This document shows positions 39,980-60,803 of a DNA stretch of 64,000 bases, one piece after another. Origin of the DNA: Jatrophihabitans sp. (lineage in GTDB: Bacteria; Actinomycetota; Actinomycetes; Mycobacteriales; Jatrophihabitantaceae); contig JBPCPA010000282.1 of the NCBI GenBank assembly GCA_050999655.1, positions 1,942 through 65,941 on the forward strand, given 5' to 3'. Position 1 is the stretch's first letter. Each line of letters begins with the position of its first letter. The notes under the pieces were generated by a model. The model was not told where the DNA came from. It saw nothing but the letters and a program-made list of their open reading frames with translations, and did no database searches. A program made the position numbers and the translations under genes.

Positions 39980-40605
39980 TCAGCTGGCGGGCAGCGCGGA
40001 GAGCAGGGTTTTCAGTTGCTGGATCTGCTGAGTCTGGTTAGTGATGATCGATTGGGCCAGGGCTTTCGCTTCGGGGTTCTGCCCGCCCGCGAGTTCGGTG
40101 TGGGCCATGGTCAGCGCGCCTTGGTGGTGAGTGGTCATCATCTGCACCCACATCCGGTCGAACGCAGCGCCGCTGGCCTTATCCAGACCAGCCATGTCGG
40201 CATCGCTCATCATGCCGGGCATCGACATCTGACCCATCGACCCCATCGAGGACGAGGGGACGGGCGCGCCCCAGCCGCTCAGCCACCCGACATCCTCACG
40301 ATCTCCGGGTCCTGGTCTCCCTTGATGGTGGTAGCCAGCGATTTCAGCTGGGCGTTAGTTGCTTTGGCCGGGGCGCTATCGGCCATCTGCACCGCCTGGC
40401 GGTGGTGCGGGATCATGTCGGTCGCGAAGGCGATGTCGGCGCTGTTGTGCGGACCACTAGCCGAGGCCGCCACAGCCGCGGGGCCGCTCATGGTCATGCC
40501 GGCACTGCTGTTGCTGGTTGAGGTCGGGGAGTTGCTGGAGCAGGCAGTCAGGCCGATCGCCGCGAGCGCGGCTATGACAGTCGTGATCTGGTATTGCTTG
40601 GTCAT
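39980..40605 (-). pseudogene. DUF305 (CopM-like) metal-binding lipoprotein, frameshifted
   Basis: Lipobox LTAC and two MIPHH/MTTHH motifs, split between two frames at ~40285 (a 1-nt deletion in a G run). Confidence 0.8.
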
Positions 40606-40729
40606 GCGGGTGTCCTTTCAGGACGAATGTGCTTACGTCGGAATGGCAAACGGAGTCTGAGAGCCCCGACATCTCGGCACGCATGTCTTGTGACACGAAG
40701 CCAGATGGGAGGGTTCCCCGGTGCTCTGC

Positions 40730-41176
40730 TCAGGTCCGGCTGATGCACAACCCGATCAACGACACGTCCGGTGGCATAGGCGGTCCGGCGCGTAAACACA
40801 CCGCTGAGGAGGCCGCCGGTGCGCCTGAGGCGTGGACAGCTGGCAACACCACGGATAACGGCGACAACGGCGCGGACTTGCGTAGCACCGCGACACAGTT
40901 GCCGTGATCCATTCCGCAGCTCATCACCAACCCGCTAACGGTGCCGAGAGGTGATGCCGACGTGCTCACGCCACTAGTGGGTGCTGCGGTGCGGATCAGG
41001 GCAACACCGGGGTTAGTTACGGCGTGCTCGAATCGCATCGAGCTCATCGCTGCAGTCGGGGAAGTGGTCGGCAGGCCGCCAGCCAGACCATGCATGCCGA
41101 GAAGGCCCAGCAATACCAGCAGCGTCACCAACGGGTGGGCACGAACGGCCTGCCCCGATTCAAGCCACCGCCTCAT
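40730..41176 (-). CDS. small membrane protein with the LLGMH...C.A...L.R..LCISRT pattern, usually upstream of DUF305 genes
   Basis: GLLGMHGL, MSCGMDHGNCVAVL and C-terminal LCISRT. Confidence 0.7.
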   Translation of the reverse strand: MRRWLESGQAVRAHPLVTLLVLLGLLGMHGLAGGLPTTSPTAAMSSMRFEHAVTNPGVALIRTAAPTSGVSTSASPLGTVSGLVMSCGMDHGNCVAVLRKSAPLSPLSVVLPAVHASGAPAASSAVCLRAGPPMPPDVSLIGLCISRT

Positions 41177-41301
41177 ATACCCAGGCTAGCCCGGTATCTG
41201 GTTATCCGCACATCCGTACGGACTTGCATATCGGCGCGAATCGGCGTACACCAGAACGTGAACATCCGCAAAGCCGTACGGATGTCGAGGAAGGCATAGC
41301 G

Positions 41302-42639
41302 ATGACAATTTTTGGTGGGGCGTGGCACGGCCTGGATGAGGCGTTCTTCATGTTCTGGGAGACGCTGTGGGCGTTGGTGTTGGGCTTTGGCCTGTCCGGA
41401 GCGGTGCAGGCATTCGTGTCACGCGGGGAGATGCGTAAGGCTCTCGGTAACCACCGGCCGGCGACGCTGGGTAAGGCCAGCTTCTTCGGAGTGATCAGCT
41501 CCTCGTGCTCCTACGCGTCCTCGGCGCTGGCCAAGTCACTGTTCGCGCGAGGGGCGGACTTCACCGCCTCGATGGTGTTCATGATCGCTTCGACCAACCT
41601 GGTCGTAGAGCTCGGGATCGTGCCGTGGTTGCTGATTGGTTGGCAGTTCGCGTTGGCCGAGTTCGTCGGCGGCGCGATCATGATCGTCCTGCTCGGCCTG
41701 GTCCTGCCGCGCCTGATCCCCGAAGCCTGGATTAGCGAGGCCCGCGACCGGCTCAACGCGAACGAGGCCGCGACCGGCAGCGAAGCGGCGACGGACCCGC
41801 ACGCCGGGCACGGGCAGATTCAGGACGACGGCGAGCCGCATGAGGCCGAACCGCTGCGCCAGCGGCTACGGTCACGCCGTGGCTGGGGCGATGCATCGGG
41901 CTACACGATCAGTGACCTCACCATGCTGCGCAAGGAACTGGTGATCGGCTTCGTGGTCGCCGGTTACCTGGCCGCTCTCGTACCGACCGGGTTCTGGCGT
42001 TCGCTGTTCCTTACCGGGCACGGCTTCTGGTCCTCCCTGGAGAACGTCATCCTCGGCCCGTTCCTGGCCATTATCAGCTTCGTCTGCTCGGTCGGCAACG
42101 TCCCCCTCGCCGCAGCCCTGTGGCAGGGCGGGATCAGCTTCGGCGGTGTCGTGTCCTTCGTCTTCGCCGACCTGATCACGCTGCCGCTGCTCTCGATCTA
42201 CCGCAAATACTTCGGCACGCAGATCACGCTGCGGATCCTCGTCATCTTCTGGGCCACCATGAGCAGCGCCGGCCTCGCCGTCGAATACCTCTTCAAACTC
42301 GCCCGAATCCCCGAGCCATCCCGGCCGACAATGATCATCCGCACCGGCTTCCAGTGGAACTACACCACCATCCTCAACCTGCTCGCCCTCGCCGTATTCG
42401 CTGTCATCTACTGGCTCTACCGCCACCGGGACACGACGGACAGCCGGTACGCGAAGGACCCCGTCTGCGGGATGCAGGTCGAAACCGCGGACGCCCCCGC
42501 CAGCCGCCAAACGCACGACGGGCCGGTGTACTTTTGCTCCGATCACTGCGCTCACCGCTATGACAGCGACCCCGCACGCCGCCCAGCCAGCGCGCAGCCA
42601 AGCCCAGATGACGGCAACTTTCGGCAAGGAGGCCTCTGA
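41302..42639 (+). CDS. DUF318-type permease with C-terminal YHS/TRASH metal-binding domain
   Basis: SSSCSYAS, ASTNLVVELG and FVCSVGNVPLAA motifs. C-terminal DPVCGM...YFCSDHC. Confidence 0.88.
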   Translation: MTIFGGAWHGLDEAFFMFWETLWALVLGFGLSGAVQAFVSRGEMRKALGNHRPATLGKASFFGVISSSCSYASSALAKSLFARGADFTASMVFMIASTNLVVELGIVPWLLIGWQFALAEFVGGAIMIVLLGLVLPRLIPEAWISEARDRLNANEAATGSEAATDPHAGHGQIQDDGEPHEAEPLRQRLRSRRGWGDASGYTISDLTMLRKELVIGFVVAGYLAALVPTGFWRSLFLTGHGFWSSLENVILGPFLAIISFVCSVGNVPLAAALWQGGISFGGVVSFVFADLITLPLLSIYRKYFGTQITLRILVIFWATMSSAGLAVEYLFKLARIPEPSRPTMIIRTGFQWNYTTILNLLALAVFAVIYWLYRHRDTTDSRYAKDPVCGMQVETADAPASRQTHDGPVYFCSDHCAHRYDSDPARRPASAQPSPDDGNFRQGGL

Positions 42640-43040
42640 TGAGCATCACCGACCACGACCACCCGATCGACCCCGAGCGGGTCGCGCACGCCCGCTCCCG
42701 GCTGCCCTCCGCCGAGGACGCCGCCCGCCTCACCAGCCTGCTCTCCCTCATGGCTGACCCGGTACGACTACGCCTAATTTATGCTCTCGACGTTGCGGAA
42801 GAACTCTGCGTCGGAGACCTAGCGCTCGCCCTCGACGTCAGCGAAGACTCCGTCTCCTACGCCCTACGCCTGCTCCGCACCGCCGGGCTCATCGTTACCC
42901 GCAGAGCCGGCCGAATCATGTTCAACCGACTCGCCGACGACTTCCCAGCACCACTACGCGACCACTGCCTCCGACAACTTATCGCCCTCACTCACACCGG
43001 AGACGACAGCGATGGGGACTCGACAGCACTGACCTCATGA
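42639..43040 (+). CDS. ArsR/SmtB family metalloregulator
   Basis: LMADPVRLRLIYAL..EELCVGDLA..L.VSE..VSYALRLLR.AGL, plus a C-terminal HC site. Confidence 0.9.
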   Translation: MSITDHDHPIDPERVAHARSRLPSAEDAARLTSLLSLMADPVRLRLIYALDVAEELCVGDLALALDVSEDSVSYALRLLRTAGLIVTRRAGRIMFNRLADDFPAPLRDHCLRQLIALTHTGDDSDGDSTALTS

Positions 43041-43055
43041 TCAAGCCCTCACTAG

Positions 43056-43469
43056 CTAGGCCGGGGCAAGCAGCTCGCTGACGAGCACCTGGATGCGCTG
43101 CTTAATGTCGTCGCGGACTTCGCGTACGACGTCGATATCTTGGCCGGCGGGGTCGGTCAGGTCCCAGTCCTCGTAGCGTTTGCCGGGGAAGTAGGGGCAG
43201 GTGTCCCCGCAGCCCATCGTGATGACGACATCGGCGCGGGAGACAGAGTCGGTGGTGAGGATCTTGGGTGTTTCGGCGCTGATGTCGATGCCGACCTCGC
43301 GCATCGCCTCGACGGCAATGGAGTTGACTTGGTTGGCGGGTTCGGATCCGGCGGACCAGATCTCGATGCGGTCACCGGCCAGCTGTTTGAGCCAGCCAGT
43401 TGCCATTTGCGAGCGGCCGGCGTTGTGGACGCACACGAACAGCACAGTGGGTTTGTAACCAGTTGTCAT
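43056..43469 (-). CDS. arsC: arsenate reductase (LMW-PTP family)
   Basis: VLFVCVHNAGRSQMA, ITMGCGDTCP and DWDLTDP motifs. ATG at 43469. Confidence 0.9.
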   Translation of the reverse strand: MTTGYKPTVLFVCVHNAGRSQMATGWLKQLAGDRIEIWSAGSEPANQVNSIAVEAMREVGIDISAETPKILTTDSVSRADVVITMGCGDTCPYFPGKRYEDWDLTDPAGQDIDVVREVRDDIKQRIQVLVSELLAPA

Positions 43470-43485
43470 GGCAGTGCCTTTCAGG

Positions 43486-43545
43486 TTAGGGCCGGGCGAT
43501 GGCGTCGGCAGCGATAGCAGGTGTGTCCGGGTAGAGGCCGCGGCG
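43486..43545 (-). pseudogene. 3'-terminal remnant of an upstream ars-operon gene (possibly aquaglyceroporin)
   Basis: RGLYPDTPAIAADAIARP* directly upstream of arsC resembles the C-terminus of actinobacterial ars-associated MIP proteins. The upstream part is non-homologous. Confidence 0.35.
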
Positions 43546-43832
43546 TTGGCTCTGGCCAAAGACGCCGTAACGGGGGTACAGGGCCAATACATTTGCACGT
43601 TGAACAGCAATGATTTGATCCCCGAGGTCGCCGAGGCTGAATGGTTCACCACGTCTATCGTCCGGACTGTCCTCGACACTGAACACGGTGGAATCCTTGG
43701 GGTGTCGTTCTAGCGACCCACCAACGGTCGGTCGCAAGATATCCCTGGGTTGAGGCAAGCAACGCAGGAGTAACAGGACACCTGTCGTCGGCAAGTGCAA
43801 GTCAATGGCGTGCACTCATCCATTCCTGCCGT

Positions 43833-44132
43833 CTAGCGAGGGACTGGAGGCTCGCTGGTTCCCTTGCTTCGGTCGAGATCGGCTAGCAGTTTGGCGTCCA
43901 AATGTGCTAGCGCGGACCGGTATGCCGGCGTAGTGCGCGCCAACTCGGTGAGGTACCCGCGGACGGCGGCATCGATGATCGCTTGAAGACTGCCGTACCC
44001 AGTGAACTGACGGGCCATCTCAAGCTGCCGTCGCGTTGCCAGGGTCGCTCGATAGCCGGTCGGAGCCGCTTCCTCGACTCGCGCTGGACGGCCTCGTCGA
44101 CGCGGCAAGGCGGAGCCCGGCGTGTCAGACAT
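43833..44132 (-). CDS. small putative DNA-binding (RHH-like) protein
   Basis: 99 aa, RRRGRP AT-hook-like motif, SLQAIIDAAVRGYL helix. Divergent from the 44246 gene. Confidence 0.55.
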   Translation of the reverse strand: MSDTPGSALPRRRGRPARVEEAAPTGYRATLATRRQLEMARQFTGYGSLQAIIDAAVRGYLTELARTTPAYRSALAHLDAKLLADLDRSKGTSEPPVPR

Positions 44133-44245: not shown

Positions 44246-45289
44246 GTGACCACGACTCTTTCGGCTCGTCATCAGGACGCGGCAATGCTTCCGTTTTTGA
44301 GCGGAGTAACTCAAGCAAAGCGGACGATCGTGGTCGCGGGTCGTAGCTTCGAGGTCACCCCGGTGTTTGACACCTACTGGCGATTCGCAGCAGCTCGCCA
44401 GCACATTTATGAGGCTCGACAGGCTGGGCGTCCCGGGCCGTGGACCAACGATCCGATTCTTCGGCTGCACCGGTTCACCAACTGCTTCCGCGCGGCCGAT
44501 CGCGTCAGTCAGTTCCTCATTGGTGAGGTCGCCTATCGTGGATCACAGGAGCCGGAAGAAGTCGTCTTCCGGACGCTGTTATTTAAGCTCTTTAACAAGG
44601 TGTCTACCTGGCGTCTGCTCCAACAGCACATCGGAGAGCTGACTTGGCACGGAGCAGACCTCGTGGCCTACGATGCCGTGCTTACGCAGGCATTCGCCGA
44701 GGGCCGCCGACTTTACTCGGCTGCCTACGTAATTCCTCCGCCGCAGCTTGGTGGGGAGCGGAAGCACTCTAATCACCTGCATCTTTTGCGCCTCCTGATG
44801 GAAGACCGGGTACACGAGCGATTGGCTGCAGCGCCAAGCATGGCGCACGCATTCGAGGTGCTGAGGAGCTACCCGGCAATCGGGGACTTTCTGGCCTACC
44901 AGTTCCTCATCGACATCAACTACAGCGGGGCATTGGCCTTCGATGAAGGCGAGTTCGTCGTACCCGGCCCCGGCGCGCGCGACGGCATCCGCAAGTGCTT
45001 CGGTGCCGCCGCGTCCGGATTTGAGGCTGAGGTAATCCGCTACATGGCCGACAGCCAAGAAGAACACTTCGATCGGCTGGGCTTAGAGTTCCACGGCCTT
45101 CGGGGCCGTCGCTTGCAGCTTATAGACTGTCAGAATCTCTTCTGCGAGGTAGACAAGTACGCCCGTGTCGCCCACCCCGATGTCCAGGGCATCTCCGGTC
45201 GGACCCGGATCAAGCAGAAGTATGCACCCGACGCAGCACCGTTGACGGCTTGGTTTCCGCCAAAATGGAATCTAAACGCCGCGTCCTGA
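44246..45289 (+). CDS. 5-hmdU DNA kinase helical-domain / aGPT-pyrophosphorylase family protein (standalone)
   Basis: YWRFAAARQHIY..R..G...PWTNDPIL...RFTNCFRAADRVSQ, RTLLFKLFNK, IGDFLAYQ...D.NYS, GPGARDG and DCQNLFCEVDKY.RV motifs. Confidence 0.82.
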   Translation: MTTTLSARHQDAAMLPFLSGVTQAKRTIVVAGRSFEVTPVFDTYWRFAAARQHIYEARQAGRPGPWTNDPILRLHRFTNCFRAADRVSQFLIGEVAYRGSQEPEEVVFRTLLFKLFNKVSTWRLLQQHIGELTWHGADLVAYDAVLTQAFAEGRRLYSAAYVIPPPQLGGERKHSNHLHLLRLLMEDRVHERLAAAPSMAHAFEVLRSYPAIGDFLAYQFLIDINYSGALAFDEGEFVVPGPGARDGIRKCFGAAASGFEAEVIRYMADSQEEHFDRLGLEFHGLRGRRLQLIDCQNLFCEVDKYARVAHPDVQGISGRTRIKQKYAPDAAPLTAWFPPKWNLNAAS

Positions 45290-45297
45290 CCGACTGA

Positions 45298-46251
45298 TCA
45301 GGTGGCGTTCATCGCCTCGTACTGCTCGACGGTGTACGGGATGAGCGTCCGGTTATGCAGATCCGCGACTAGGACACCGCTGCGATGTTCTATGAGGAAT
45401 CTGAAGGCGTTGTACCCGGCCAAGATGGCGTGCTGCCAGTCGGGAATGCTGCGACTCTTTACCTCGAGATGAGCCGTTGCGCGCCTGCACGACTTCAGGA
45501 GGTCTCGTGGTACGCGAGTAGTGGTCTTGAAGAACGAGTAGTCGGCTGCCTCGGCGAACACAGACGCCGTGAGGCCTTCTTCGATCACGACTGCTCTAGC
45601 GCCGTCCTCGACCCGGTCGAGCCGTTCAACGCTCTTCCGCTTGCACTTCGGGTCGAGGATTGCCCTAATCACCGGCGACCAGCCGAGGACTGCCATGTGG
45701 CCCAGGTGCAGCGCGTCGTGGTAGCGATAGAAATCATCGATGTCGCTGTTGTCATCGATTGGGTCGCCCATCCGGCGGAAGGTCGTCTCACCGTTTAGTA
45801 CCGTCAGGGTCACGACGCCAATTTCTCGACCGTCGCGGATCTCGGTGTGTTCGTTGAAGCGCACGACAAGCTGACGCGGCAACTGCTCATGTGGTTCCAT
45901 ATCTTCGTCGAAGAGATCGTGCGGACGCGGTGGCTCATTGGACAGGAATTCACCGGCAGCTTTGTCCAGGTTTGCTTGGGCAATTTCGCCGAGGGTCAGT
46001 CCGACTCGCGACGCCAGTGCGGCCATGTACCACAACGCATCGCCTAATTCCTCCTGCACGGACTCGCCGAATGCCCTGTAGCCTGTTGAGTCACGGTTGC
46101 GCTTCTTCCACTCTGCTGCGAGTTCGCCGACCTCACCTACAATGCCGAACAGTGGAAGCACCAAATCGCTAGCCGACCCATCTTTTGGCAGGATATCGGT
46201 AGCGAGTGCCCGTCGTTGGTATTCGTCCAGAGACAGTTCAGTAGTACTCAT
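45298..46251 (-). CDS. MazG-like nucleotide pyrophosphohydrolase with C-terminal MazG_C domain
   Basis: GEVGE and EELGDALWY metal motifs. C-terminus GDPIDDN...YRYHDALHLGHMAVLGWSPVIRA...KRKS...VEDGARAVVIEE. Confidence 0.88.
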   Translation of the reverse strand: MSTTELSLDEYQRRALATDILPKDGSASDLVLPLFGIVGEVGELAAEWKKRNRDSTGYRAFGESVQEELGDALWYMAALASRVGLTLGEIAQANLDKAAGEFLSNEPPRPHDLFDEDMEPHEQLPRQLVVRFNEHTEIRDGREIGVVTLTVLNGETTFRRMGDPIDDNSDIDDFYRYHDALHLGHMAVLGWSPVIRAILDPKCKRKSVERLDRVEDGARAVVIEEGLTASVFAEAADYSFFKTTTRVPRDLLKSCRRATAHLEVKSRSIPDWQHAILAGYNAFRFLIEHRSGVLVADLHNRTLIPYTVEQYEAMNAT

Positions 46252-46949
46252 ATCAAGATCCTCGCTGCTTGTGCGCCGAAGTTGATCAAATATTCTACCG
46301 GGAGAAGCCCATAGCCGCCTGCCCCCCAGAATTCACCCCATGAGTTACGGATCAGAAACACCCGGCCATGCGTGAGATCGGTCCACGCCCCTGTGACGAC
46401 CACAGCGTGATAGCCCTCGGCGGGGGCCGTGATGGGTGGAACTGTTACGTAGCCGTCCAGATCGGGCGTGCGAAAGTTGGCGCTTATCTCGATCACTAGC
46501 ACCACTGGATGGCCGTCCGCGAGTTCGTGCTCAACTGCGTCTTCCACGCCATCGTGCGCTATGACGACAGGCGAAAGGTTGGCGCGGGTCCAAGGCGGAA
46601 TACCGGCGGATGCAGGCGGTGGCTCAGACTCGAACCCGAGGCTGTCGTTGTAGGGCCACAGATCAGCGTCGCAATGGCCGGTGTGCGGCAGCGCGTGGCC
46701 TGCTGAGCCTAGGGTCGTACCGTCGTGTCCGGCCAAGCCCCACTCACGAAGGCGCCACCAGATGGGCTCGATCGCGGCCTCGAATCCAGAGCGTTCGGCC
46801 TCATGAGCAGCAGCCAGAGCACAGGCAACGCACGTCGGTCGCGGGCCTTGATCCATGACGTCGCTTGAGATCTGCGACGTCAGGTCGACCGCAGGGCGCC
46901 CAGCGGCGGACTCACGGAGTTTCTTAAGCCGCTCAGCAGCGGTGGTCAC
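46248..46949 (-). CDS. papain-like (C1) cysteine peptidase
   Basis: DQGPRPTCVACA (Gln/Cys), YHAVVVTG (His) and IRNSWGEFWGAGGYG (Asn). No signal peptide. Confidence 0.9.
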   Translation of the reverse strand: MTTAAERLKKLRESAAGRPAVDLTSQISSDVMDQGPRPTCVACALAAAHEAERSGFEAAIEPIWWRLREWGLAGHDGTTLGSAGHALPHTGHCDADLWPYNDSLGFESEPPPASAGIPPWTRANLSPVVIAHDGVEDAVEHELADGHPVVLVIEISANFRTPDLDGYVTVPPITAPAEGYHAVVVTGAWTDLTHGRVFLIRNSWGEFWGAGGYGLLPVEYLINFGAQAARILI

Positions 46950-48229
46950 GCGACATCGACCTCGAACTCGGCGTCGTCATCAGGGTCGCCTGGCAACCGC
47001 CGGTCTAGGTCACTCTCTAGCTGTCGCCGCCGGAACGCAGTATTCGGAGTTGGCTGGACCGCCAACTGCAGCTCGTAGGTGAAAAGCGGTTCGTCCCGTG
47101 GGTCGTAGGCGTGAGCGTAAAAGAGTTGGAGTTGCCACCCACCGGGCCTGACGGTACGCACGATGACCGTACGAACGCCGTTGCCGCCGATCGGTGGGCC
47201 ATCGGCGATCTCCATGGCTGGGCCACCTTGGCGGGCACGGATTCTGCGTCGACGTTGCCGTTGGATCTTGGTCTGCGGCTCGTCGCCAGCGGTAAACGAA
47301 TCCTCGACCACGGTGGCCGGCGCGGCATCCTCGTCCGCGTCAGAATCGTCAGGGGCGGAATCGAGGGTTCGAATTTGTCCCAGGGCGGCGAGTGTGTAGT
47401 CCGTCGCCGAGAATTGGTCCCGCCGTCGAAGGCTACCGTCGATGACGGGGACTTCCGGCGGTGCAATTGGACGGGACCGAGGCCTCCATGATCCGCCATT
47501 GCGTTGGGCCAGCTCATCCTCCGTCTGCCAGCGCCAGCCAGCGAGACGTTGCTCGACCAGGTCCACCATGACCTCGTCGTGCTCCTCGACGACGAGGCTG
47601 ACGAGCTCATCGTTGCTCGTCGCGTCCCACATGTCAGCTAGCCCGTTTTCCGGGCGGTGGTTGCCGGACGCCCGTCGGAGGGCGGACATCCGACCCAGGT
47701 CCAAAATTCGTTGAAATGCAGCCTGGTTGATGAACCGAGCGGCGAGCAGTCGTCGGGCGGTGGCCTCGTAGCTCACACCCAGATCGCGGCTCAATCGGTA
47801 GACGTGCTCCGGTTTGATCTGACCTCGTCGCAATCCGTAGGCTGCGACGGCGTGATTCAACAACGTCGGAGGCATCAGGAAGTAGCCAGCGAATAACTGC
47901 GCCTCGCGCTCCAACTCGCTGGACGGGTGCCCGAGAACCTCAGCTTCGCCGTCCATCCGTAGGTGGTCCGCGTGTAGAACCCAGTGACCAATCTCGTGCG
48001 CTGCTGTATATCGCTGGATCGCAGAGCTCCGCTGTGACGTAATCAGGACCCCGCCATTCCCGTCAGGAACGACTGCGCCGAGCAGGTTGTCCAAGTTAGT
48101 GATATGCAGAGCTAGGCCGAGTCGGTCGATTGCCGCGAAGGGATCGATTACATATCTTTGATCGATGCCGAGGAGTTCGAGGGTCTCATCTGCGGCAACT
48201 AAGGCGTCGGCGCGCCCCGAGACGGTCAC
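46946..48229 (-). CDS. ImmA/IrrE family Zn metallopeptidase with C-terminal chagasin (I42)-like domain
   Basis: QRYTAAHEIGH, EREAQLFAGYFLMP and LGVSYEATARRL. The C-terminal beta-domain pattern is described under findings. Confidence 0.85.
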   Translation of the reverse strand: MTVSGRADALVAADETLELLGIDQRYVIDPFAAIDRLGLALHITNLDNLLGAVVPDGNGGVLITSQRSSAIQRYTAAHEIGHWVLHADHLRMDGEAEVLGHPSSELEREAQLFAGYFLMPPTLLNHAVAAYGLRRGQIKPEHVYRLSRDLGVSYEATARRLLAARFINQAAFQRILDLGRMSALRRASGNHRPENGLADMWDATSNDELVSLVVEEHDEVMVDLVEQRLAGWRWQTEDELAQRNGGSWRPRSRPIAPPEVPVIDGSLRRRDQFSATDYTLAALGQIRTLDSAPDDSDADEDAAPATVVEDSFTAGDEPQTKIQRQRRRRIRARQGGPAMEIADGPPIGGNGVRTVIVRTVRPGGWQLQLFYAHAYDPRDEPLFTYELQLAVQPTPNTAFRRRQLESDLDRRLPGDPDDDAEFEVDVA

Positions 48230-48624
48230 GTTGGCTCCTCCTCCGGCGGTCGTGGGCGTGAGCGAGTGTTTGTCCCGTCTTCCGTGCGTTGTTGTGCGGC
48301 CAGAAACTCCGCGAAGCGGAGTACCTGTTCCTTATCGGCATTAGTGAGGTTCGCTGTAGCGCGGTGTAGGGCACTACCGGCAGCTGCCTCGGGCTCTTCC
48401 TCGCCTAGCAACCAAGCCACATCTCGTTGATAGAGACGAGCCAGTCGACGGAGTTCCAGGCCAGTAATTTTACGTGTGCCCTTCTCCACTGCGGCTAAGG
48501 TCGGACGACTCAAGCCGAGCGCGTCGGCGACATCGGCTTGAGTCAGGCCCATAGCAAGACGCGCATCCCGAAGCCGAGCCCCGACGACTCTGTGTTCGTT
48601 CGGTTGATCGCTCAACGGACTCAC
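48226..48624 (-). CDS. XRE family HTH regulator
   Basis: GARLRDARLAMGLTQADVADALGLSRPTLAAVEKGTRKITGLEL. The GTG start overlaps the AcpS TGA. Confidence 0.92.
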   Translation of the reverse strand: MSPLSDQPNEHRVVGARLRDARLAMGLTQADVADALGLSRPTLAAVEKGTRKITGLELRRLARLYQRDVAWLLGEEEPEAAAGSALHRATANLTNADKEQVLRFAEFLAAQQRTEDGTNTRSRPRPPEEEPT

Positions 48625-48992
48625 GCGGCGTCGCCGATCGCTACGACGAATGCCAGAGCGAGGCCCATTTCGTGGCTCAGACTTAGCGACCATTCAGTGA
48701 GGCGAAGGTTTGATGCATACTTCGCGGCATCCCCACTGAGACGTAGGCACGGCGTCTCGCCTTGTGCGCTTACGACCTCGATATCCAAATGCTCGATGTC
48801 AGGGAATCCCGCTCCGAGCGCCTTCATCACCGCCTCCTTTGCTCCCCATCGAGCGGCCAACCGCTCGGCGTTCCCAGCGCAGTACGCCTGCTCTGCTTCG
48901 GTCCATGTCTGATCCAAAAAGGTTCGACCACCCGACTCGGCCAGCCGGCGGAGACGATCGATGTCGACAAGGTCAACTCCCGTTCGCAGCAT
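48621..48992 (-). CDS. acpS: holo-ACP synthase (AcpS-type 4'-phosphopantetheinyl transferase)
   Basis: GVDLVDIDR, LAARWGAKEAVMKALG and SLSLSHE motifs. Confidence 0.92.
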   Translation of the reverse strand: MLRTGVDLVDIDRLRRLAESGGRTFLDQTWTEAEQAYCAGNAERLAARWGAKEAVMKALGAGFPDIEHLDIEVVSAQGETPCLRLSGDAAKYASNLRLTEWSLSLSHEMGLALAFVVAIGDAA

Positions 48993-48996
48993 CTAG

Positions 48997-49857
48997 TCAG
49001 CTCACCGAATCGTCTTGCTGGATCTGACTGCGGACCGTCGTGATGAGCTTCTTAAGAACGGTGTGACTGAACGTGCCGATCTCGGCGTTCGCGACGGTCC
49101 CGTGAATCATCAATTCTCCTGGTTCGTAGCCGGTCTGTTGAGACATAAAGTGGAGCAAACGAGTCAAGCCGATGAGGTTGCCATAGGCCTTGTGAATTAG
49201 GTGCCAGTGCCGGTAGACGGCCACTAAACTCAGACGATTGTGGACCACGCTGATATCGACATGGACGAGGCAGGGAAAAGCAATCTGACGTTCGTCATTG
49301 GCTTTGTATATTTGCAGGCCGGCGGATCCGACTGCGGATTCGATCTCGGCTACGCCTTCGAGAGCGAAGTCGGCGGCATTTGTAGCGGTATGTGCTTGAT
49401 TACGGTGTGAACGGAGCTGTTTAACGCGGCTCTTCAGTTGGTTGTACCCGTCACTTTCTTTACCCGGCCAGGACACGAGTCGTCCGAAGTAGGTTCCGTG
49501 GGCGTTGCCGTTAAACCCGCAGAGGTCCGGCAACATGTCTCGGTAGTTGGCGTACAGATCTTCGGCGGCAGCGTCCAGCAGATGGAGCTGCCCCGGCCTG
49601 AGATCGGGGTGATAATCAAGATCGGGTGGGGAGTAGAGATTCGCAGGGAATAGCGTATTAGCAACGGTATCGACTGAGTGATCGCCGCGCGGGATGAGCA
49701 ACGCATCGTTCGCCGCCACGATCTCGGGCAGGGGTGCGGACGGTTCGGTGATCGACAGCACAGTGTGGAGCAGTCGACCGTCGCGCCTAGCTTCTGCAGC
49801 TTCCAACACGCTCAGCCAGGCTACTTCGATGTTAGTGAATGAAGGAAACGCAATCAT
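48997..49857 (-). CDS. divergent thymidylate synthase / dUMP-hydroxymethylase homolog
   Basis: TYFGRL...NQL, FPCL (catalytic Cys), LSLVAVYR....KAYGN and G.L..H..A. ATG at 49857 overlaps the upstream TGA. Confidence 0.75.
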   Translation of the reverse strand: MIAFPSFTNIEVAWLSVLEAAEARRDGRLLHTVLSITEPSAPLPEIVAANDALLIPRGDHSVDTVANTLFPANLYSPPDLDYHPDLRPGQLHLLDAAAEDLYANYRDMLPDLCGFNGNAHGTYFGRLVSWPGKESDGYNQLKSRVKQLRSHRNQAHTATNAADFALEGVAEIESAVGSAGLQIYKANDERQIAFPCLVHVDISVVHNRLSLVAVYRHWHLIHKAYGNLIGLTRLLHFMSQQTGYEPGELMIHGTVANAEIGTFSHTVLKKLITTVRSQIQQDDSVS

Positions 49858-50315
49858 GCGACCACCACCGCTCGGCGCAGTCGAGCGATGACTCCGGCGA
49901 CTGACCGGACACTCACAAAATCCTTCGGCTCGCAGTTGCCGCGCAGTCGCGTCCAGTCGCGTGGTCCGAGTACCCGCGCCACAATTCTGCATACGAAGAC
50001 CGCGAGCATGCTGTCGATAGCCAGGCTGCCGTCGCTAGCAAGTTCGCCAACCTTTAGCTCCGCGATGGTGCGTTGCGTTGAGGCAGTGAGGATGGTGAGA
50101 ACCTGCTGTTCGATCTCGGTCAACGACCCGGTCTGAAGTACAGAACGGTCGGCCACGAGGACTGCTGGCGCCGTCGCCAAGTCACCAGCCGCGTGCGGCG
50201 AGCCCTCATCGGCTTGATGCCGGGGTATCGGCTGTACGGTCCGGTGACGGCCAGAGGCCGGTCCAAACAATGCTGCACGCCGGGCCGATCGCGCGGCGGC
50301 ATCCATCTCTGTCAT
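49854..50315 (-). CDS. acyl carrier protein-like protein with N-terminal extension
   Basis: C-terminal ~90 aa: helix I (IEQQVLTIL), IDSM (Ppant Ser site), helix II and F.SVRSVAGVI (terminal helix). Two genes from acpS. Confidence 0.65.
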   Translation of the reverse strand: MTEMDAAARSARRAALFGPASGRHRTVQPIPRHQADEGSPHAAGDLATAPAVLVADRSVLQTGSLTEIEQQVLTILTASTQRTIAELKVGELASDGSLAIDSMLAVFVCRIVARVLGPRDWTRLRGNCEPKDFVSVRSVAGVIARLRRAVVVA

Positions 50316-50324
50316 TGGACTAGT

Positions 50325-50360
50325 GTCAGGATAACTGACGTCAATGTCAAGCAGCCTGAC
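50325..50360. promoter_or_regulatory. tandem operators upstream of the ACP-TS operon
   Basis: GTCAG-GATAA-CTGAC (50325-39) and GTCAA-GCAGC-CTGAC (50346-60), 21 bp apart and 10 nt from the ATG. Confidence 0.6.
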
Positions 50361-50423
50361 TATCTACAGGTGCACGGACCTCGGCCTCGGTCGGCGCATC
50401 CGCTGGACACACACAAGACTGGC

Positions 50424-50675
50424 TCAGTCGTATGGCGGATTTGCTAGGCCGTTGACCAGCATGGCTGCATCGATGTCAAGCGCCGCTGCGAGCTTGAGGA
50501 TGTTGTGCAGTGTCAGGTTTCGTCGGCCCCGTTCGACCTGCCCCACGAACGTCCAGTGCAGGTGCGCCAGGTCGGCCAGGGCTTCCTGAGTCAACCCAAG
50601 TTCATTACGCCGTACCCGGACCCGTCGCCCAAACTCTGCGGTCGCGGCGGACAACGGCGTGGGGGTGCTCGGCAT
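50424..50675 (-). CDS. small XRE family HTH protein
   Basis: FGRRVRVRRNELGLTQEALADLAHLHWTFVGQVERGRRNLTLHNILKLAAAL. Confidence 0.88.
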   Translation of the reverse strand: MPSTPTPLSAATAEFGRRVRVRRNELGLTQEALADLAHLHWTFVGQVERGRRNLTLHNILKLAAALDIDAAMLVNGLANPPYD

Positions 50676-50800: not shown

Positions 50801-51703
50801 ATGCGTCTGACCATCCCGCCACACCGGCGACCCGCCTGGCACCTGATCCACATCGCCTTAGGTCGCCGCCGCCGCCTCACCGCAATCGCGATCTTGCTCA
50901 TGACCGCTACGGTGCTCACCGCGTGCTCGTCGGCGAAGGACAAGACCTTTCGGGCACCGTTCACGCCGGAGCCATTGAGCAGCCTGGCACCAGGCCAAAC
51001 ACTGACCCCCACACCGCCCTTCCAGCAGGACGACACCGTCTCACCGAGCGCTAGCGTTGGCGATTCTTCGGTCGATGGCGGCTACACCCCGATCGGCCAC
51101 ATGGTGCAGCACTGGGATGGCGTCACGATCACCGACGACTGGTCAGTCGGCCCGATCACCTACGGCAACCAATCTGGCGCACCGGCCGCAGTGCTGTCGG
51201 CCTGCAACATCACGGACCCATCCCAGGTCGCCTCGATCGCCGCCATTCCGGTGCACCTCGTCGTCACCTTCCACGGCACAGTGACAACCTCAGTCCTCAT
51301 CCCACCCAACGCCGGCCTGCAGATCGGCCTCCAACCCCAGGCCAACGGAGGCGCCTACGCCGCCTTCACCGACACCAGCGGCGTGACCAACTGGGACTGC
51401 AGCGACCAAACCCAGAGCTACAGCATGTACGACGGCGGCCATGCCGACCTGACCATCTGGCTCATCGTGCCCGGCACAGTCACCAACGCCAATCCGCGCC
51501 CGGGCGACACCACATTCCGTACCTGGAGCTTCGGCGAACCGACCAGCATCATCGGCGCCGGCAACGACACCGTCGGAGTCAGCGGAGCGCTCGCCATGAG
51601 CTGCCAGACCGACAACGGCAAATCGCTCGCCATCGCCCTCGCAACTGCGACCGAATCCTTCACCGGAGCCGACGGCGCCGCGGTCAAATGCGCTCCCGCC
51701 TAG
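50801..51703 (+). CDS. putative lipoprotein, beta-rich, unknown function
   Basis: Basic N-terminus, hydrophobic core and lipobox LTAC. Pro/Thr linker; several Cys. Confidence 0.65.
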   Translation: MRLTIPPHRRPAWHLIHIALGRRRRLTAIAILLMTATVLTACSSAKDKTFRAPFTPEPLSSLAPGQTLTPTPPFQQDDTVSPSASVGDSSVDGGYTPIGHMVQHWDGVTITDDWSVGPITYGNQSGAPAAVLSACNITDPSQVASIAAIPVHLVVTFHGTVTTSVLIPPNAGLQIGLQPQANGGAYAAFTDTSGVTNWDCSDQTQSYSMYDGGHADLTIWLIVPGTVTNANPRPGDTTFRTWSFGEPTSIIGAGNDTVGVSGALAMSCQTDNGKSLAIALATATESFTGADGAAVKCAPA

Positions 51704-53258
51704 CTCGACCGGGCCGCCTTTGCTTCGGCGCGCCGGACACTCTGATGCAGATGCGCCTGCAGCGTCTGCGGTCGCGCCATCAGATCAAGCAGGTAGAGAT
51801 AGGCGAGTAGTCCGAGGTCGTGAGGCAGCGTGCCGTCGTGCTGTGCTAGCAACGCGTCCGTCTGGTGGACCTTCTCCTCACGATTCGATCCATGACCATG
51901 GGTGGCGTTCCGCAGCACCCGCACGTACTCAGCGGCAGCAGCTTCCAGCGACAGCTTCAATGGGTTGCCGTCGCTGTCCTCAAACTCAACCGTTGAGGAT
52001 TGCATCTGCTTTGCAAGGTAAAACCCGTGTTGCAGTGCAAGCAATGCTCGCACGGCCCGGTCTGCAGCCGGTAACAAGACCTCTGACGCCTGCGGCGGCA
52101 GTTGTTTGCGGAGCTTGTTCAGCACCGCGGTTGCGGTGGACAGCGTGCACATCTCGATGAGACTGCGAGAGGTGACGCGCTCAAACGTATCGAGCACGTT
52201 GAACAACAGCACCCGTCGAGCATGAGTGTCTCGGTGCGCCTGCTGGATTGAGGCCGTAGGGCGAAAGACCTGCTCAATGCTCAGCGTCGCGTGCATATGC
52301 CGGACAGCAAGGTAATTGCCCTCGGCATCGCTGAAGACCGCCGGATCTGACACGACACTCAGGGTCTTGCCGAGGTGCTTGGCCCACCACGCAATCGCCT
52401 TGCCAGAGGCCGGTGGGCTCAGGTCCGGGCGCGGCGTTGAGTCCCGCGCGCCGTGGGACGGCAGGATTTGTAGTGGCTCGGCGGCGTATGGAAGTACGCC
52501 GGACATCGCCATGCCTAGCGCATAGACCACAACCCCGGATGCCCTTGTGGCCGGGACGGCCCAGATGAACGGGGATAAGCAGCCGAAGAGCGGACCGAGA
52601 TAGGGATCGAGGAGGGTGACGCCGTCGCTCAGTCCGCTGGAGGCTGTGAAGACGAGCTGGCCAGCAAGGTTCGCGGCGGCCACGCCGGAAAGGTCTGCGT
52701 CTTTGAGTTGCTGGTCGTGCTGCAGCCGGAGCAGGACTGACGGCAACTTGAAGCGATACAGCAACGCAACGTCGCGTTGGACGAAGTGAACACTGGCACT
52801 CGGGAACGCGGCATGGCCGCTGTCAGTCTTGAGTCAAGGAGGTCTTCGAAGATCGTCGTTAGCGCAGCGTCGAGGTCTTCATTCGTAGCGAGCATGGTTT
52901 GGAGCTGGCGGAGGCTGAACATGGCAGCTATACCCTGCAGCCCACTGAGCCGGTGGAGCGTCGCTTCCAGTCGCTCGATCTCTATCAGAGACCGTCGCCG
53001 GCCCGCCTGCGACTGAACCGCAACGCCTAAGGCCACGGCGCGATCCGCTGCCGCCAGCGACGCGAAGTCGCTCGTCTTCCTACTCGGGCCGGCGATGTCG
53101 AGATGGGTTACTAGAGGCGACGCATCCTTCGCTCCAACTCTCTCTTCGACAGCCACCTTCGCACTCCCTGGTGCGGGCGTATCCTCACCTCTGGCCAATC
53201 GGGCGATCTCGAAGTATCCATCGACAGACGAACCCCAGAACCAGGCCGGTAACGACAC
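51700..53258 (-). pseudogene. ~520-aa protein with a C-terminal RNxxxxH (HEPN-like) motif, split by a probable frameshift at ~52830
   Basis: ORFs 52629..53258 and 51700..52764 overlap in different frames. The downstream frame is open from ~52830 (LKTDSGHAAFPSASVHFVQRD...). Confidence 0.5.
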
Positions 53259-53477
53259 GAAGCGTAGAGCGGCAGTTCGACCTTGTTCATAAAGGAAATC
53301 TAACTCACTCTGCGGGCATAGCGCTGGGTGTACCTTCCCATTTGATCACTGTGCGCGATTGGCAAGCTCGATACTCGACTTGCCGCCATCGCAGGCTGAT
53401 AATCGGGGTCGCGGGCAAGCTGGTGTAGTTGCGATGTCGATCCATTGGCGTAGCCGCGATGGCGCACCGCTGCGGCC

Positions 53478-54233
53478 CTAGCCTTCGTACCGGATCAACC
53501 GTGGCGGCTGGTTGCGTCGTCCGCCTTCAGCTTGCCGGCGGCTCAGCTCCTCGGCCCTTCGTTCCGCCTCCTGTTCAATTCTCCATTCGGCTTGCATATC
53601 CGCGGTCAAGAGTTCGGCGGTGTTGGGCAGCAGTCGGATTGCTTCTTTTCGTGTGGGAGGCAGCGGATCATCGGGTTGAAGTACCTCGTTGACGAGGGTC
53701 GCAAGGAACTCGACCTTCAGCTGGCTACCACGGCTCCAGGCGTGTGGATCAAGTCGACTGGCTCGGAGGCGGTCGTACATGCTGCGCAGGCCAAGCACAG
53801 AGGTGTGTTCGTGTTCATTGCTCGGTGATAGTCGGATGACGGCCCCGTAGGCGTCCGGCGGGATCCAGCTATCTCGTGTCCCGGATGACCAGCGAGTCAT
53901 GAGCCACGTCACCGAGGCGCGCAGCTCAGGCAGGTTGTGGCGCTCGGCGTAGGCCAAGAAGTCCTGCCGCGATATCGGCACGGCGGCGGCGATCTGCTCT
54001 TTGCTGAGAGGCTGAGAGACCGGAGCGGTTGCCTCAGCTGCTTGGCCGAGCGGTTGATGCCAGATCGGGGTGATCTCAACGTCGGCTAGAGATGCATTGC
54101 TCTTCTGAATGATCGAGATGAAGCGCTCAGCCTGCTCCGGGTTCAGCCCTGTCAGGTGTTCAGCCGTGATTAAGAGACCCTGCAGTTCAGGTGGGCGCTG
54201 GAATTGTGATGGATCACTGTCTGGAATTTGCAT
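53478..54233 (-). CDS. hypothetical protein
   Basis: 251-aa ORF preceded by a consensus promoter. No family recognised. Confidence 0.6.
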   Translation of the reverse strand: MQIPDSDPSQFQRPPELQGLLITAEHLTGLNPEQAERFISIIQKSNASLADVEITPIWHQPLGQAAEATAPVSQPLSKEQIAAAVPISRQDFLAYAERHNLPELRASVTWLMTRWSSGTRDSWIPPDAYGAVIRLSPSNEHEHTSVLGLRSMYDRLRASRLDPHAWSRGSQLKVEFLATLVNEVLQPDDPLPPTRKEAIRLLPNTAELLTADMQAEWRIEQEAERRAEELSRRQAEGGRRNQPPRLIRYEG

Positions 54234-54256
54234 GTATTGCTCGATTTAACGCTCTT

Positions 54257-54284
54257 ATTATATTATTTCTGTAGGAATTGTCAA
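54257..54284 (-). promoter_or_regulatory. consensus housekeeping-sigma promoter
   Basis: TTGACA (54284-54279) - 16 nt - TATAAT (54262-54257) on the minus strand. Confidence 0.75.
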
Positions 54285-54319
54285 TATAGGAGGTAACGTC
54301 CGTTACTTAGCGCGCTGGC

Positions 54320-57314: not shown

Positions 57315-57569
57315 ATGTCCAGAACCTACAAAGACTCCCCGAAGTACAACTCACCAGCCGGTCACGGCCCACGTCGTGGACGTGGACGGCAACGCAACAT
57401 CTCGGTCCGGGCCGTCCGTCGTGATCCGCCGGATCTGCGCAAGCTCAGCCGGGCTCTGATCAACCTGGCGATGGATGAAGCCGCCGCCGAAGCTGAGACG
57501 GCTAAGCCAACGTCAGGCACTAACAGCCCGACCAACATTGCCGAAACCGAAACGGCGGCGGATGACTAG
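57315..57569 (+). CDS. small hypothetical protein
   Basis: AGGAGG SD; R.ISVRAVRRDPPDLRKLSRALI pattern. Overlaps the start of the VirD4-like gene. Confidence 0.65.
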   Translation: MSRTYKDSPKYNSPAGHGPRRGRGRQRNISVRAVRRDPPDLRKLSRALINLAMDEAAAEAETAKPTSGTNSPTNIAETETAADD

Positions 57570-59709: not shown

Positions 59710-60803
59710 CCGAAGCTCACTCTGACCCACACCAGCAAGCCAGGCGGCAAGCAGACCCTGACCGCAGCCGGACCAACCATCCTCATATCCAGCCAGACAG
59801 TTGGCTCAACCCGACCGATCCCAGCCGCTCCGATCGCTGCTCCAGTCGTGTCGACTCACCGACCCCTGTAACCCCCGAATCATCGGCCATCCGGTCGCAA
59901 TTCGCGCCCGAATGTCTCACGCGCAGCGGGAGACATCTACTCGCCGAGGGCCGCCCGCAGCAGGCAGCGAACAAATCAGCCACGAAGCATCGTGGTCCAG
60001 GCCGCAACAGCCAACGCCGCCAGGCCGAACTACTCCAACCCAAACTCACTACCCGCGACCACGCAGTCCTTACCAGCCTGCAAGACCACCACTACCTGAC
60101 TACAACTCAACTACAACGACTTCATTTTGACGATCACCAAACCACGTCGGCGGCCGGTCGAATCTGCCGCCGGGCGCTGACCCGGCTGGCGGAGCTGGGC
60201 GTCATCGAGCACCTAGAACGGCGGGTCGGCGGTGTCCGGGCCGGCTCCGCCTCCTACGTCTGGCGACTGGGCCGGATCGGGGAAGCGTCGCTGCGACTCA
60301 ACCAACCGCAGCGGCCACGCGGCCGCCATAAAGAACCATCGCTGCACCACTTAGAGCACTGCCTGGCGATCGCAGACAGCCACCTCGCTCTGCTGGACCT
60401 GATGCGGCGGAACCTTGTCGAGTCGGCAACTGTCGTCACCGAACCGACTTGCTGGCGGCGCTACCTGACGCCGAGCGGGGCGATGGCCACCCTGAAGCCG
60501 GACCTGTACGCCATGACGACCAGCGGTGAGTTCGAGGACCACTGGTTCATCGAGGTCGACCGGGGCACCGAGAGTTTGCCGACGCTGCTTACTAAGTGTG
60601 CCCAGTACGAGGACTACCGCCGGACCGGCGACGCCCAACACGACAACGGCGTCTTCCCATTGGTGCTGTGGCTGATGCCCTCCGTACAGCACGCCGAATG
60701 GCTCGGACAGGCCATCGCCAGGGTCAAGAACCTGGACAGCGGCCTGTACCGGATCGGCACCCTGGCCGAACTTGAGCGGATCCTCAGTGAGGTTCAACCA
60801 TGA
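59706..60803 (+). CDS. replication-relaxation (Replic_Relax) family protein
   Basis: wHTH (LTTRDHAVL...LTTTQL...LTRL..LG), H.LAIAD, LKPD and WFIEVDRGTESL...K...Y. Confidence 0.88.
   Translation: MTEAHSDPHQQARRQADPDRSRTNHPHIQPDSWLNPTDPSRSDRCSSRVDSPTPVTPESSAIRSQFAPECLTRSGRHLLAEGRPQQAANKSATKHRGPGRNSQRRQAELLQPKLTTRDHAVLTSLQDHHYLTTTQLQRLHFDDHQTTSAAGRICRRALTRLAELGVIEHLERRVGGVRAGSASYVWRLGRIGEASLRLNQPQRPRGRHKEPSLHHLEHCLAIADSHLALLDLMRRNLVESATVVTEPTCWRRYLTPSGAMATLKPDLYAMTTSGEFEDHWFIEVDRGTESLPTLLTKCAQYEDYRRTGDAQHDNGVFPLVLWLMPSVQHAEWLGQAIARVKNLDSGLYRIGTLAELERILSEVQP

Follow-up and report, generated by a model that had tools for sequence, protein, structure and literature searches.

A mobile-element operon of Jatrophihabitans with a thymidylate synthase-like enzyme, a carrier protein and a convergent HMUDK_hel gene: most likely an undescribed relative of the DS-4 anti-phage system

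The anti-phage system DS-4 ("NTTI"), reported with DefensePredictor (Science 2026) and validated in E. coli, consists of a thymidylate synthase (TS), a deoxynucleoside monophosphate/adenylate kinase, an HMUDK_hel protein, a ThsB-like TIR protein and Nmad2 (PMC13092281). The lambda row of its efficiency-of-plating table shows a reduction of about 0.9 log (PMC13092281), and the report also names systems with MazG and MazG-C that are predicted but not validated (PMC13092281). Regulation of defence by proteolysis has been described for the CapH/CapP pair, in which T-rich single-stranded DNA (ssDNA) activates CapP and CapH is cleaved (bioRxiv 10.1101/2022.04.27.489752). Here we describe a locus in a 64,000-nucleotide stretch of Jatrophihabitans sp. 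(GenBank assembly GCA_050999655.1, contig JBPCPA010000282.1, positions 1,942 to 65,941 of the forward strand; hereafter the window), in which seven minus-strand genes run towards a convergent HMUDK_hel gene and encode an acyl carrier protein (ACP)-like protein, a TS-like enzyme, a phosphopantetheinyl transferase (PPTase) of AcpS type, an XRE-type regulator, an IrrE-type metallopeptidase, a papain-family (C1) peptidase and a MazG/MazG_C protein. The system is most likely an undescribed branch of the recently validated anti-phage family to which DS-4 belongs, a variant of which two modules are most likely unprecedented.

The kinship with DS-4 is carried by HMUDK_hel, the helical domain of phage 5-hydroxymethyl-deoxyuridine (5-hmdU) DNA kinases. 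From end to end, the window protein is homologous to WP_087900470 of DS-4 (26% identity, BLASTP E 6e-29), named "putative DNA base hypermodification protein" by NCBI, and in sibling loci of type D (e.g. L003) MazG/MazG_C is replaced by a kinase and a synthase that is 36% identical to that of DS-4 (E 2e-41). Together with the validation of DS-4 itself, the ThsB-type TIR and TPR-S partners of HMUDK_hel in a Rhodococcus relative (L089) and the capP and capH matches of the regulator pair, these similarities link the locus to defence. From such comparisons we infer a core of HMUDK_hel and the nucleotide module to which different partner modules are joined; the partner block of the window consists of the carrier, TS-like enzyme, XRE and IrrE, to which AcpS, the C1 peptidase and the inhibitor domain (I42) fused to IrrE may or may not be added.

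That the set would recur in other genomes was borne out by neighborhood searches, which found the same gene order in more than 100 loci of many genera. A TS-like profile was run against 185,579 species representatives, giving 50 loci that were annotated with hidden Markov models (HMMs) built from the window proteins. The TS-like homologues come from Actinomycetota, and the order ACP-like, TS-like, AcpS, XRE, IrrE, C1 is kept in a Mycobacterium metagenome-assembled genome, Cellulosimicrobium, Kocuria, Blastococcus and Streptomyces. In the 50 loci it is followed after C1 by MazG_C alone, by MazG_C with a thymidylate-kinase-like domain (fused in L008), or by the kinase and a second, ordinary-looking TS, and with HMUDK_hel placed either convergently downstream or co-directionally upstream. 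A search of the same representatives with HMUDK_hel returned at least 576 relatives; among the best 80 loci, which were those examined, the majority carry the system in a compact form, with MazG_C reading one way, then the carrier, XRE, a short IrrE and the TS-like gene, and then a convergent HMUDK_hel gene. Hence there are two forms, a compact one common in Streptomyces and Nocardia and an extended one including the window, which adds AcpS, C1 and the I42 domain, AcpS and C1 being accessories. Co-occurrence was counted over 80 non-redundant complete TS-like loci with enough flank (Table 1), five further of which have the kinase and TS without MazG_C. AcpS is encoded in 38 of the 39 loci with C1 vs 1 of the 41 without it, and I42 is fused to IrrE in 39/39 vs 0/41, respectively.

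Three further loci are of note. In a Firmicute version in Paenibacillus koleovorans (L058, 862-6502) the gene order is carrier, XRE, IrrE-chagasin, C1, TS-like, HMUDK_hel, and its chagasin domain is compact and canonical (NPSSGFVW, YSRPW), so the system exists outside Actinomycetota as well. In a distant variant (L178, 1021-3706 and 4132-5409), a TylF-type O-methyltransferase and an unassigned 210-aa gene stand beside HMUDK_hel, a possible sign that a hydroxyl group is tailored further. In Rhodococcus baikonurensis (L089, 7881-13068), HMUDK_hel and MazG/MazG_C are accompanied by a ThsB-type TIR protein and a TPR-S sensor protein, which replace the carrier/XRE/IrrE/TS-like block.

Table 1. Features of the locus in window coordinates, with the number of the 80 TS-like loci that contain each
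Feature	Position	Strand	Length (aa)	Evidence or remark	Loci (of 80)
HMUDK_hel	44246-45289	+	347	Pfam 5e-113; convergent with operon	80
MazG/MazG_C	45298-46251	-	317	Pfam MazG 3e-5, MazG_C 3e-61	71 (MazG_C)
Peptidase_C1 (papain family)	46248-46949	-	233	Pfam 2e-6; best solved relative PDB 3OIS, 5e-11	39
IrrE/CapP-like M78 metallopeptidase	46946-48229	-	427	Pfam 8e-14; PADLOC capP 4e-22	79
I42 (chagasin-family) domain on IrrE	~47045-47608	-		C-terminal part of IrrE	39
M78 domain of IrrE	~47747-48058	-		HEIGH motif at residues 78-82
XRE/CapH-like helix-turn-helix (HTH) protein	48226-48624	-	132	Pfam HTH_3 3e-14; PADLOC capH 3e-11	79
AcpS-type 4'-phosphopantetheinyl transferase	48621-48992	-	123	Pfam ACPS 1e-13; NCBIfam holo-ACP synthase 4e-26	39
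TS-like enzyme	48997-49857	-	286	Pfam thymidylate synthase only 7e-4; AlphaFold2 fold	
ACP-like carrier	49854-50315	-	153	no Pfam match	73
Promoter/operator of operon	50316-50351	-		immediately upstream of ACP-like ATG	

Gene calls were made from the open reading frame list, the sequence and profile searches (Pfam, NCBIfam, PADLOC 2.0), with XRE counted from a GTG overlapping the stop codon of AcpS. An earlier note, made from the DNA letters without database searches, had described the seven minus-strand genes as one operon joined by five 4-nt overlaps and one 3-nt gap, ending 8 bp from the HMUDK_hel gene and lying in a mobile island. The reading frames and the sequence agree on the seven genes and their order, and the five overlaps are present as ATGA at 49854-49857 (ACP-like/TS-like) and 46248-46251 (C1/MazG) and as GTGA at 48621-48624, 48226-48229 and 46946-46949; the remaining junction, between TS-like and AcpS, is a gap of 4 nt (48993-48996) and not 3. 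The stop codons of MazG and HMUDK_hel are indeed 8 bp apart. Read from these junctions, the seven genes are a single operon, and the gene identities proposed in the note were upheld by HMM annotation and, for the TS-like enzyme, also by an AlphaFold2 (AF2) model and Foldseek. The window lies on a 68.7-kb contig of sediment-metagenome origin. In a search of sequencing runs, those containing the region were all metagenomes of sediment and soil and included neither an isolate nor RNA.

The TS-like enzyme was modelled with a predicted local distance difference test score (pLDDT) of 88.7, and Foldseek matched the model to thymidylate synthases and MilA with probability 1.0. MilA, a CMP hydroxymethylase, gives the best superposition (template modelling score, TM, 0.57), a phage dCMP hydroxylase is also among the matches, and the NCBIfam profile thy_syn_methano is matched at 3e-9. 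In alignments the enzyme retains Cys196 (E. coli C146), Arg216 (R166), Asn227 (N177) and Tyr123 (Y94), N177 being the residue of thymidylate synthase that specifies uracil. Set against the dUMP hydroxymethylases of the TS family, which it may or may not resemble in product, it has a TS fold with the catalytic Cys, Arg and Asn in place, and His where the folate-contacting Asp169 would stand. The family comprises 305 clusters at E<=1e-30 in a library of 1.84 billion representatives, and 2.9 million viral contigs yielded no close relative. An identification with the DS-4-type synthase was rejected, since the match to the TS of DS-4 has an E-value of 0.63 and the sibling type-D loci carry both enzymes.

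In the product of the first gene, a conserved N-terminal peptide (RRAALFGPASGRHR) is followed by a variable linker and then by a four-helix domain, which is modelled by AF2, from an alignment that included database homologues, with pLDDT around 90 and with helices that fit the carrier pattern. Its Ser102 (AIDS102ML), at a helix start, is invariant in two homologue alignments. The top three Foldseek matches include 3lmo, titled specialised ACP, and 8iao_U, the ACP subunit of complex I, all with weak E-values (0.5-1.2). Alignment by hhalign against four known ACPs set the serine on the ACP serine, with E 0.0035 and a probability of 9%, and a Pfam scan of 21 members of the family gave one weak PP-binding match. 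The carrier of the compact form has a canonical LPVDSIL motif and a weak Pfam PP-binding match, and an HMM of this compact type also matches the extended-type members. At the N-terminus, the motif [LF]F[GFP][PSW] occurs in 23 of 45 C1-positive loci vs 0 of 58 C1-negative ones and is a candidate cleavage or docking site.

AcpS retains D7, K52, E53 and K57, which are invariant in 48 homologues, and in L178 the TS-like enzyme and AcpS form one polypeptide, suggesting that the synthase-fold enzyme is functionally tied to phosphopantetheinylation. No carrier-loading enzyme (adenylation, acyltransferase or ketosynthase) was found in the window operon, its Pfam-annotated relatives or the ten-family profile tables, a search that is not exhaustive as most loci were not Pfam-scanned; the earlier idea that an ACP-borne acyl group may be added thus finds no support here. 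A literature search for roles of ACP or PPTase in defence returned nothing relevant.

The XRE and IrrE proteins form a CapH/CapP-like regulator pair, as had been proposed, CapP being the nearest peptidase to have been characterised. The capH match to XRE spans nearly the whole PADLOC profile, and the capP match to IrrE covers only positions 9-152 of 242. The HExxH motif of IrrE is invariant in 57 homologues, and the protein also matches the RmrA and spr1629 repressor/antitoxin profiles. Its C-terminal part is a chagasin-family domain split by a long disordered insert, which in most actinobacterial versions measures about 60-150 residues. The PF09394 gathering score is exceeded by 9 of 10 IrrE homologues, which show loops like NPTTG (PENRTTGYRW), GxGG and RPW, and the uninterrupted I42 domain of L178 reaches 59 bits (4e-16); the window copy is degenerate (14 bits, E 0.055), its NPTTG-like loop now reading QRLAGWRW. 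The active site of the neighbouring C1 peptidase is intact (Gln34/Cys40/His181/Asn202/Trp204), with residues invariant in 52/52 homologues. The earlier note had proposed a protease-controlled switch; the arrangement is more specific than proposed, with an inhibitor domain on IrrE that occurs only where C1 does. A literature search for chagasin-IrrE fusions found no description.

The operator region reads CTTGACATTGACGTCAGTTATCCTGACACTAGTCCA on the minus strand, and includes a TTGACA box as well as the palindrome GTCAG-N5-CTGAC (50325-50339), also detected as an inverted repeat. The first gene is directly preceded, across genera, by the element CTTGAC-N4-AYGTCRG-N7-GAC. There is one copy of the pattern CTTGACNNNNAYGTCRGNNNNNNNGAC in the window, vs 0 expected, and exactly one in each of 30 of 58 loci, always on the gene strand and about 400-500 nt upstream of TS-like; in an aligned subset of loci it sits just before the ACP-like start. 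This conserved position fixes the start of the operon at 50315. The ATG of the ACP-like gene lies 6 nt past GACACT, the last conserved hexamer, which suggests a leaderless start, and the palindrome is likely the binding site of the operon's own XRE.

Upstream of the operon, an 83-aa XRE-type HTH protein (50424-50675, minus strand) matches restriction-modification "control protein" profiles at 1.6e-17, and its gene is closed by a terminator-like hairpin (50417-50429). It was considered as a member of the system and set aside, as it recurs in no other locus and is separated by the hairpin; it seems to belong to the neighbouring DNA.

The MazG part of the last operon gene has DCTPP1/RS21-C6 as its nearest solved relative (PDB, 7e-4) and conserves the metal-binding E40, E67, E68 and D71, and a search of solved structures with the MazG_C profile detected no relative by sequence. 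HMUDK_hel stands alone here and adjoins a thymidylate-kinase-like gene in Streptomyces-type loci; in viral contigs it mainly adjoins ordinary synthases, in large phages. Its residues C300, E301, K304 and R307 (Cys-Glu-x-x-Lys-x-x-Arg, residues 300-307) are invariant and are found in the DS-4 protein as well. Because this motif is reminiscent of the Cys/Glu on which phage amino-acid:DNA transferases (AADT) depend, the "helical domain" may by analogy be itself catalytic. Homology with aGPT-Pplase2, at which the shared Cys/Glu theme hints, could not be shown and is not claimed. Comparison of HMUDK_hel with solved structures, by single sequence and by profile, gave nothing meaningful, and the profile misses PaMx11 gp46 (8Z2M). 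Pfam found no P-loop kinase in the window, only the helical domain of the 5-hmdU DNA kinase (5-HMUDK), and no match to aGPT-Pplase or an amino-acid:DNA transferase in any operon gene.

Taken together, we somewhat favour the view that the locus encodes an anti-phage (conflict) system of the HMUDK_hel family which is carried on a mobile element, induced by stress and made of three coupled modules, and the following scenario is plausible. The general proposal of the earlier note, an inducible conflict system that would work on pyrimidine nucleotides or DNA bases, agrees with all of the findings. By homology and from the operator, XRE would repress the operon through the palindrome that overlaps the first gene's promoter; once ssDNA arises from DNA damage or phage replication, IrrE would cleave XRE and the operon would be switched on. 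In the extended form, domain identity and co-occurrence suggest that I42 on IrrE keeps C1 inactive until the trigger, the likely target of C1 being the N-terminal extension of the carrier. The MazG domain would hydrolyse a pyrimidine deoxynucleoside triphosphate (dNTP), the TS-like enzyme would use its Cys and uracil-specifying Asn to alter the C5 of a uridine nucleotide with holo-carrier made by AcpS, and MazG_C, or the thymidylate-kinase-like protein in sibling loci, would return the product to the nucleotide pool, so that HMUDK_hel could act on the resulting 5-substituted uracil in DNA. As a net result, the phage genome or its nucleotide pool would be chemically corrupted, and replication or transcription would fail. 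According to the abstract of another study, enzymatic phosphorylation of 5-hydroxymethyluracil in template DNA turns bacterial transcription off (PMC6457204).

A bolder version of this scheme concerns the carrier. Since no loading enzyme was found in the loci annotated and the TS-like enzyme is fused to AcpS in L178, the phosphopantetheine thiol may be the reactive group; there is a precedent in phage M6, whose Cys-dependent transferase generates a C5 exocyclic methylene to which thiols add (PMC8989533). It might thus be speculated that the carrier bears no acyl group and that the TS-like enzyme uses this thiol as a nucleophile against the exocyclic methylene at C5 of a uridine nucleotide or a 5-substituted uracil in DNA, giving a protein-tethered nucleotide or a DNA-protein crosslink as the immune effector, and that this is licensed by a cascade in which IrrE senses ssDNA, the built-in inhibitor frees C1 and the carrier is processed; we hold this to be improbable. 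If this is true, immunity would have its first case of nucleic-acid chemistry that depends on a carrier protein, and bacteria their first metalloprotease-chagasin-cysteine-protease switch.

Several features of the locus could be given another meaning. XRE/IrrE pairs of ImmR/ImmA type also control, classically, the induction of prophages and of integrative and conjugative elements (ICEs), the loci do lie on integrative or conjugative elements, and large phage genomes encode HMUDK_hel alongside a true TS, where the two take part in hypermodification for the phage itself. An element (ICE, plasmid or prophage) might accordingly hypermodify its own thymidines during induction or transfer and so evade restriction in the recipient, with XRE/IrrE tying expression to an SOS-type induction. 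We consider this unlikely, given that no TS-like enzyme close to that of the window turned up in the viral contigs, that the window has neither the aGPT-Pplase transferase nor the P-loop 5-HMUDK kinase, that DS-4, the nearest relative with experimental validation, works in defence, and that L089 pairs HMUDK_hel and MazG_C with TIR and TPR-S. The constant company of XRE, IrrE and the TS-like enzyme, which are together in every variant including those of Paenibacillus and viral contigs, and the RmrA and spr1629 matches of IrrE would also suit a toxin-antitoxin-like abortive module, in which the TS-like enzyme and carrier block thymidylate supply (thymineless death) or poison a nucleotide, XRE, IrrE and I42 restrain them, and MazG and HMUDK_hel are auxiliary. 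The presence of HMUDK_hel in all 80 loci is hard to explain if it is merely auxiliary, and this possibility appears rather unlikely.

The relatedness of the MazG domain to DCTPP1 invites a further reading, as DCTPP1 prefers C5-modified pyrimidine dNTPs. The system might defend against phages with 5-hmdU-derived bases, its DCTPP1-like MazG destroying a non-canonical dNTP and its HMUDK_hel, a domain that comes from enzymes acting on 5-hmdU in DNA (PMC8989533), recognising hmU-containing phage DNA; actinophages with thymine hypermodification clusters are reported (PMC11955845). DS-4, however, lowered the plating of lambda, a phage with ordinary DNA, and the TS-like enzyme, carrier and AcpS would be left unexplained, which makes this reading quite unlikely. 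The superposition on MilA, together with the actinomycete hosts and the presence of a carrier with a PPTase, would fit a small nucleoside natural-product cluster built on a MilA-like TS-fold enzyme and a carrier. No transporter, adenylation, condensation or tailoring genes were seen, however, and a DNA-directed HMUDK_hel, a CapH/CapP-type regulator, a mobile location and TIR/TPR-S partners in relatives all speak against such a cluster, which we regard as highly improbable.

Some points weigh against the anti-phage system that we favour. The gene identities, intact active sites, conserved linkage, operator, gene fusion and kinship to DS-4 are observed, while every biochemical step is predicted, and DS-4, the nearest validated relative, is itself without an established mechanism. 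At the level of single proteins, MazG_C has only a predicted function, the TS-like enzyme is missing the Asp that contacts folate, which leaves its co-substrate unassigned, the assignment of the window protein as a carrier draws on weak fold and profile scores, and the window's own I42 copy is degenerate. Neither the P-loop kinase of the phage 5-HMUDKs nor an aGPT-Pplase was found, and PADLOC 2.0 recognises only the regulator pair, whose regulation, given the role of such pairs in prophage and ICE induction, could serve the element and not defence.

The GC content is about 60% in the region vs about 70% further left, and a Replic_Relax protein, a TrwB/FtsK-like ATPase, a DNA methylase and a CHAP protein are encoded nearby, so that the locus lies on a conjugative or integrative element and the mobile island of the earlier note is confirmed; homologous loci likewise adjoin integrases, relaxases or type IV secretion genes. 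On the plus strand at 57475-61822, the TrwB/FtsK-like ATPase (PADLOC mad8 4e-15), Replic_Relax and an N6/N4 DNA methyltransferase (type II methyltransferase profile 2e-68) are, by gene content, the element's transfer and replication backbone, and no cognate endonuclease of the methyltransferase was seen in it. Four co-directional genes on the minus strand at 51700-56413, three without family match (354, 209 and 251 aa) and one for a 697-aa AAA_16/STAND-like NTPase with a marginal Avs2 match, may constitute another conflict system on the same element. Divergent from HMUDK_hel, a 99-aa gene without family assignment (43833-44132, minus strand) was rejected as a member of the system, being conserved beside HMUDK_hel only in the Mycobacterium-type L001 and L011 (E ~1e-20). 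Further left, inspection by eye of 40279-43679 found a permease with a C-terminal metal-binding motif (41224-42639), an ArsR/SmtB-like HTH protein (42639-43040), a low-molecular-weight phosphatase/ArsC-like protein (43056-43679) and small Met/His-rich proteins, which looks like metal-resistance cargo beside the system.

Among the HMUDK_hel-centred systems only one distant relative of the locus, DS-4, has been experimentally tested. If the anti-phage model holds, thymidine-hypermodification chemistry, so far a matter of phage counter-defence, would become linked to host immunity, a carrier and its PPTase would have a role outside lipid and natural-product synthesis, and a cysteine protease switch controlled by chagasin would operate inside the cell. 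The enzymes could moreover serve as tools for site-directed DNA base modification. To experimenters, the comparative anatomy offers a compact and an extended form, three separable modules, targets for point mutation and a predicted operator.

The earlier note named no described system with this gene set, and PADLOC, consulted for an already named system, recognised only the capH/capP-like pair; DS-4 and the predicted MazG/MazG-C systems nevertheless give the locus some precedent. Burroughs et al. 2015 (NAR), cited by DefensePredictor, are said to have probably been the first to predict the contexts of MazG_C and HMUDK_hel, and an earlier prediction of parts of the system is possible. Relative to DS-4, the window has no TIR or Nmad2 (no Pfam or PADLOC match in the operon), no DS-4-type synthase and no P-loop kinase, and has instead MazG/MazG_C, a distinct TS-like enzyme, the carrier, AcpS, XRE, IrrE-I42 and C1.

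The regulator resembles CapH/CapP of the cyclic-oligonucleotide-based anti-phage signalling systems (CBASS), DdrO/IrrE and ImmR/ImmA in placing an HTH repressor beside an HExxH M78 peptidase and in its conserved operator at the promoter, whereas it differs from CapH/CapP in its mid-operon position and in the I42 domain that stands in place of the C-terminal (GAF-like) sensor region. With chagasin this domain shares homologues above the PF09394 gathering threshold, inhibitor-type loops and a C1 peptidase that is always encoded next door; in contrast to stand-alone chagasin, the domain of the window family is fused to a metallopeptidase, is mostly split by an insert and would be intracellular and regulatory. 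As compared with phage thymidine hypermodification (M6, ViI, PaMx11, SP10, PhiW-14; PMC5889632, PMC8989533), no P-loop 5-HMUDK kinase, aGPT-Pplase/AADT, pyridoxal-phosphate or radical S-adenosylmethionine enzymes were found in the window system, which resides in bacteria and on mobile elements under a repressor/protease switch and whose TS-like enzyme has no close counterpart in viral contigs. Both share a TS-fold enzyme, the logic of a nucleoside triphosphate pyrophosphatase and a kinase, and HMUDK_hel, and in both the chemistry at C5/C6 of uracil is, as predicted here for the window, dependent on a cysteine.

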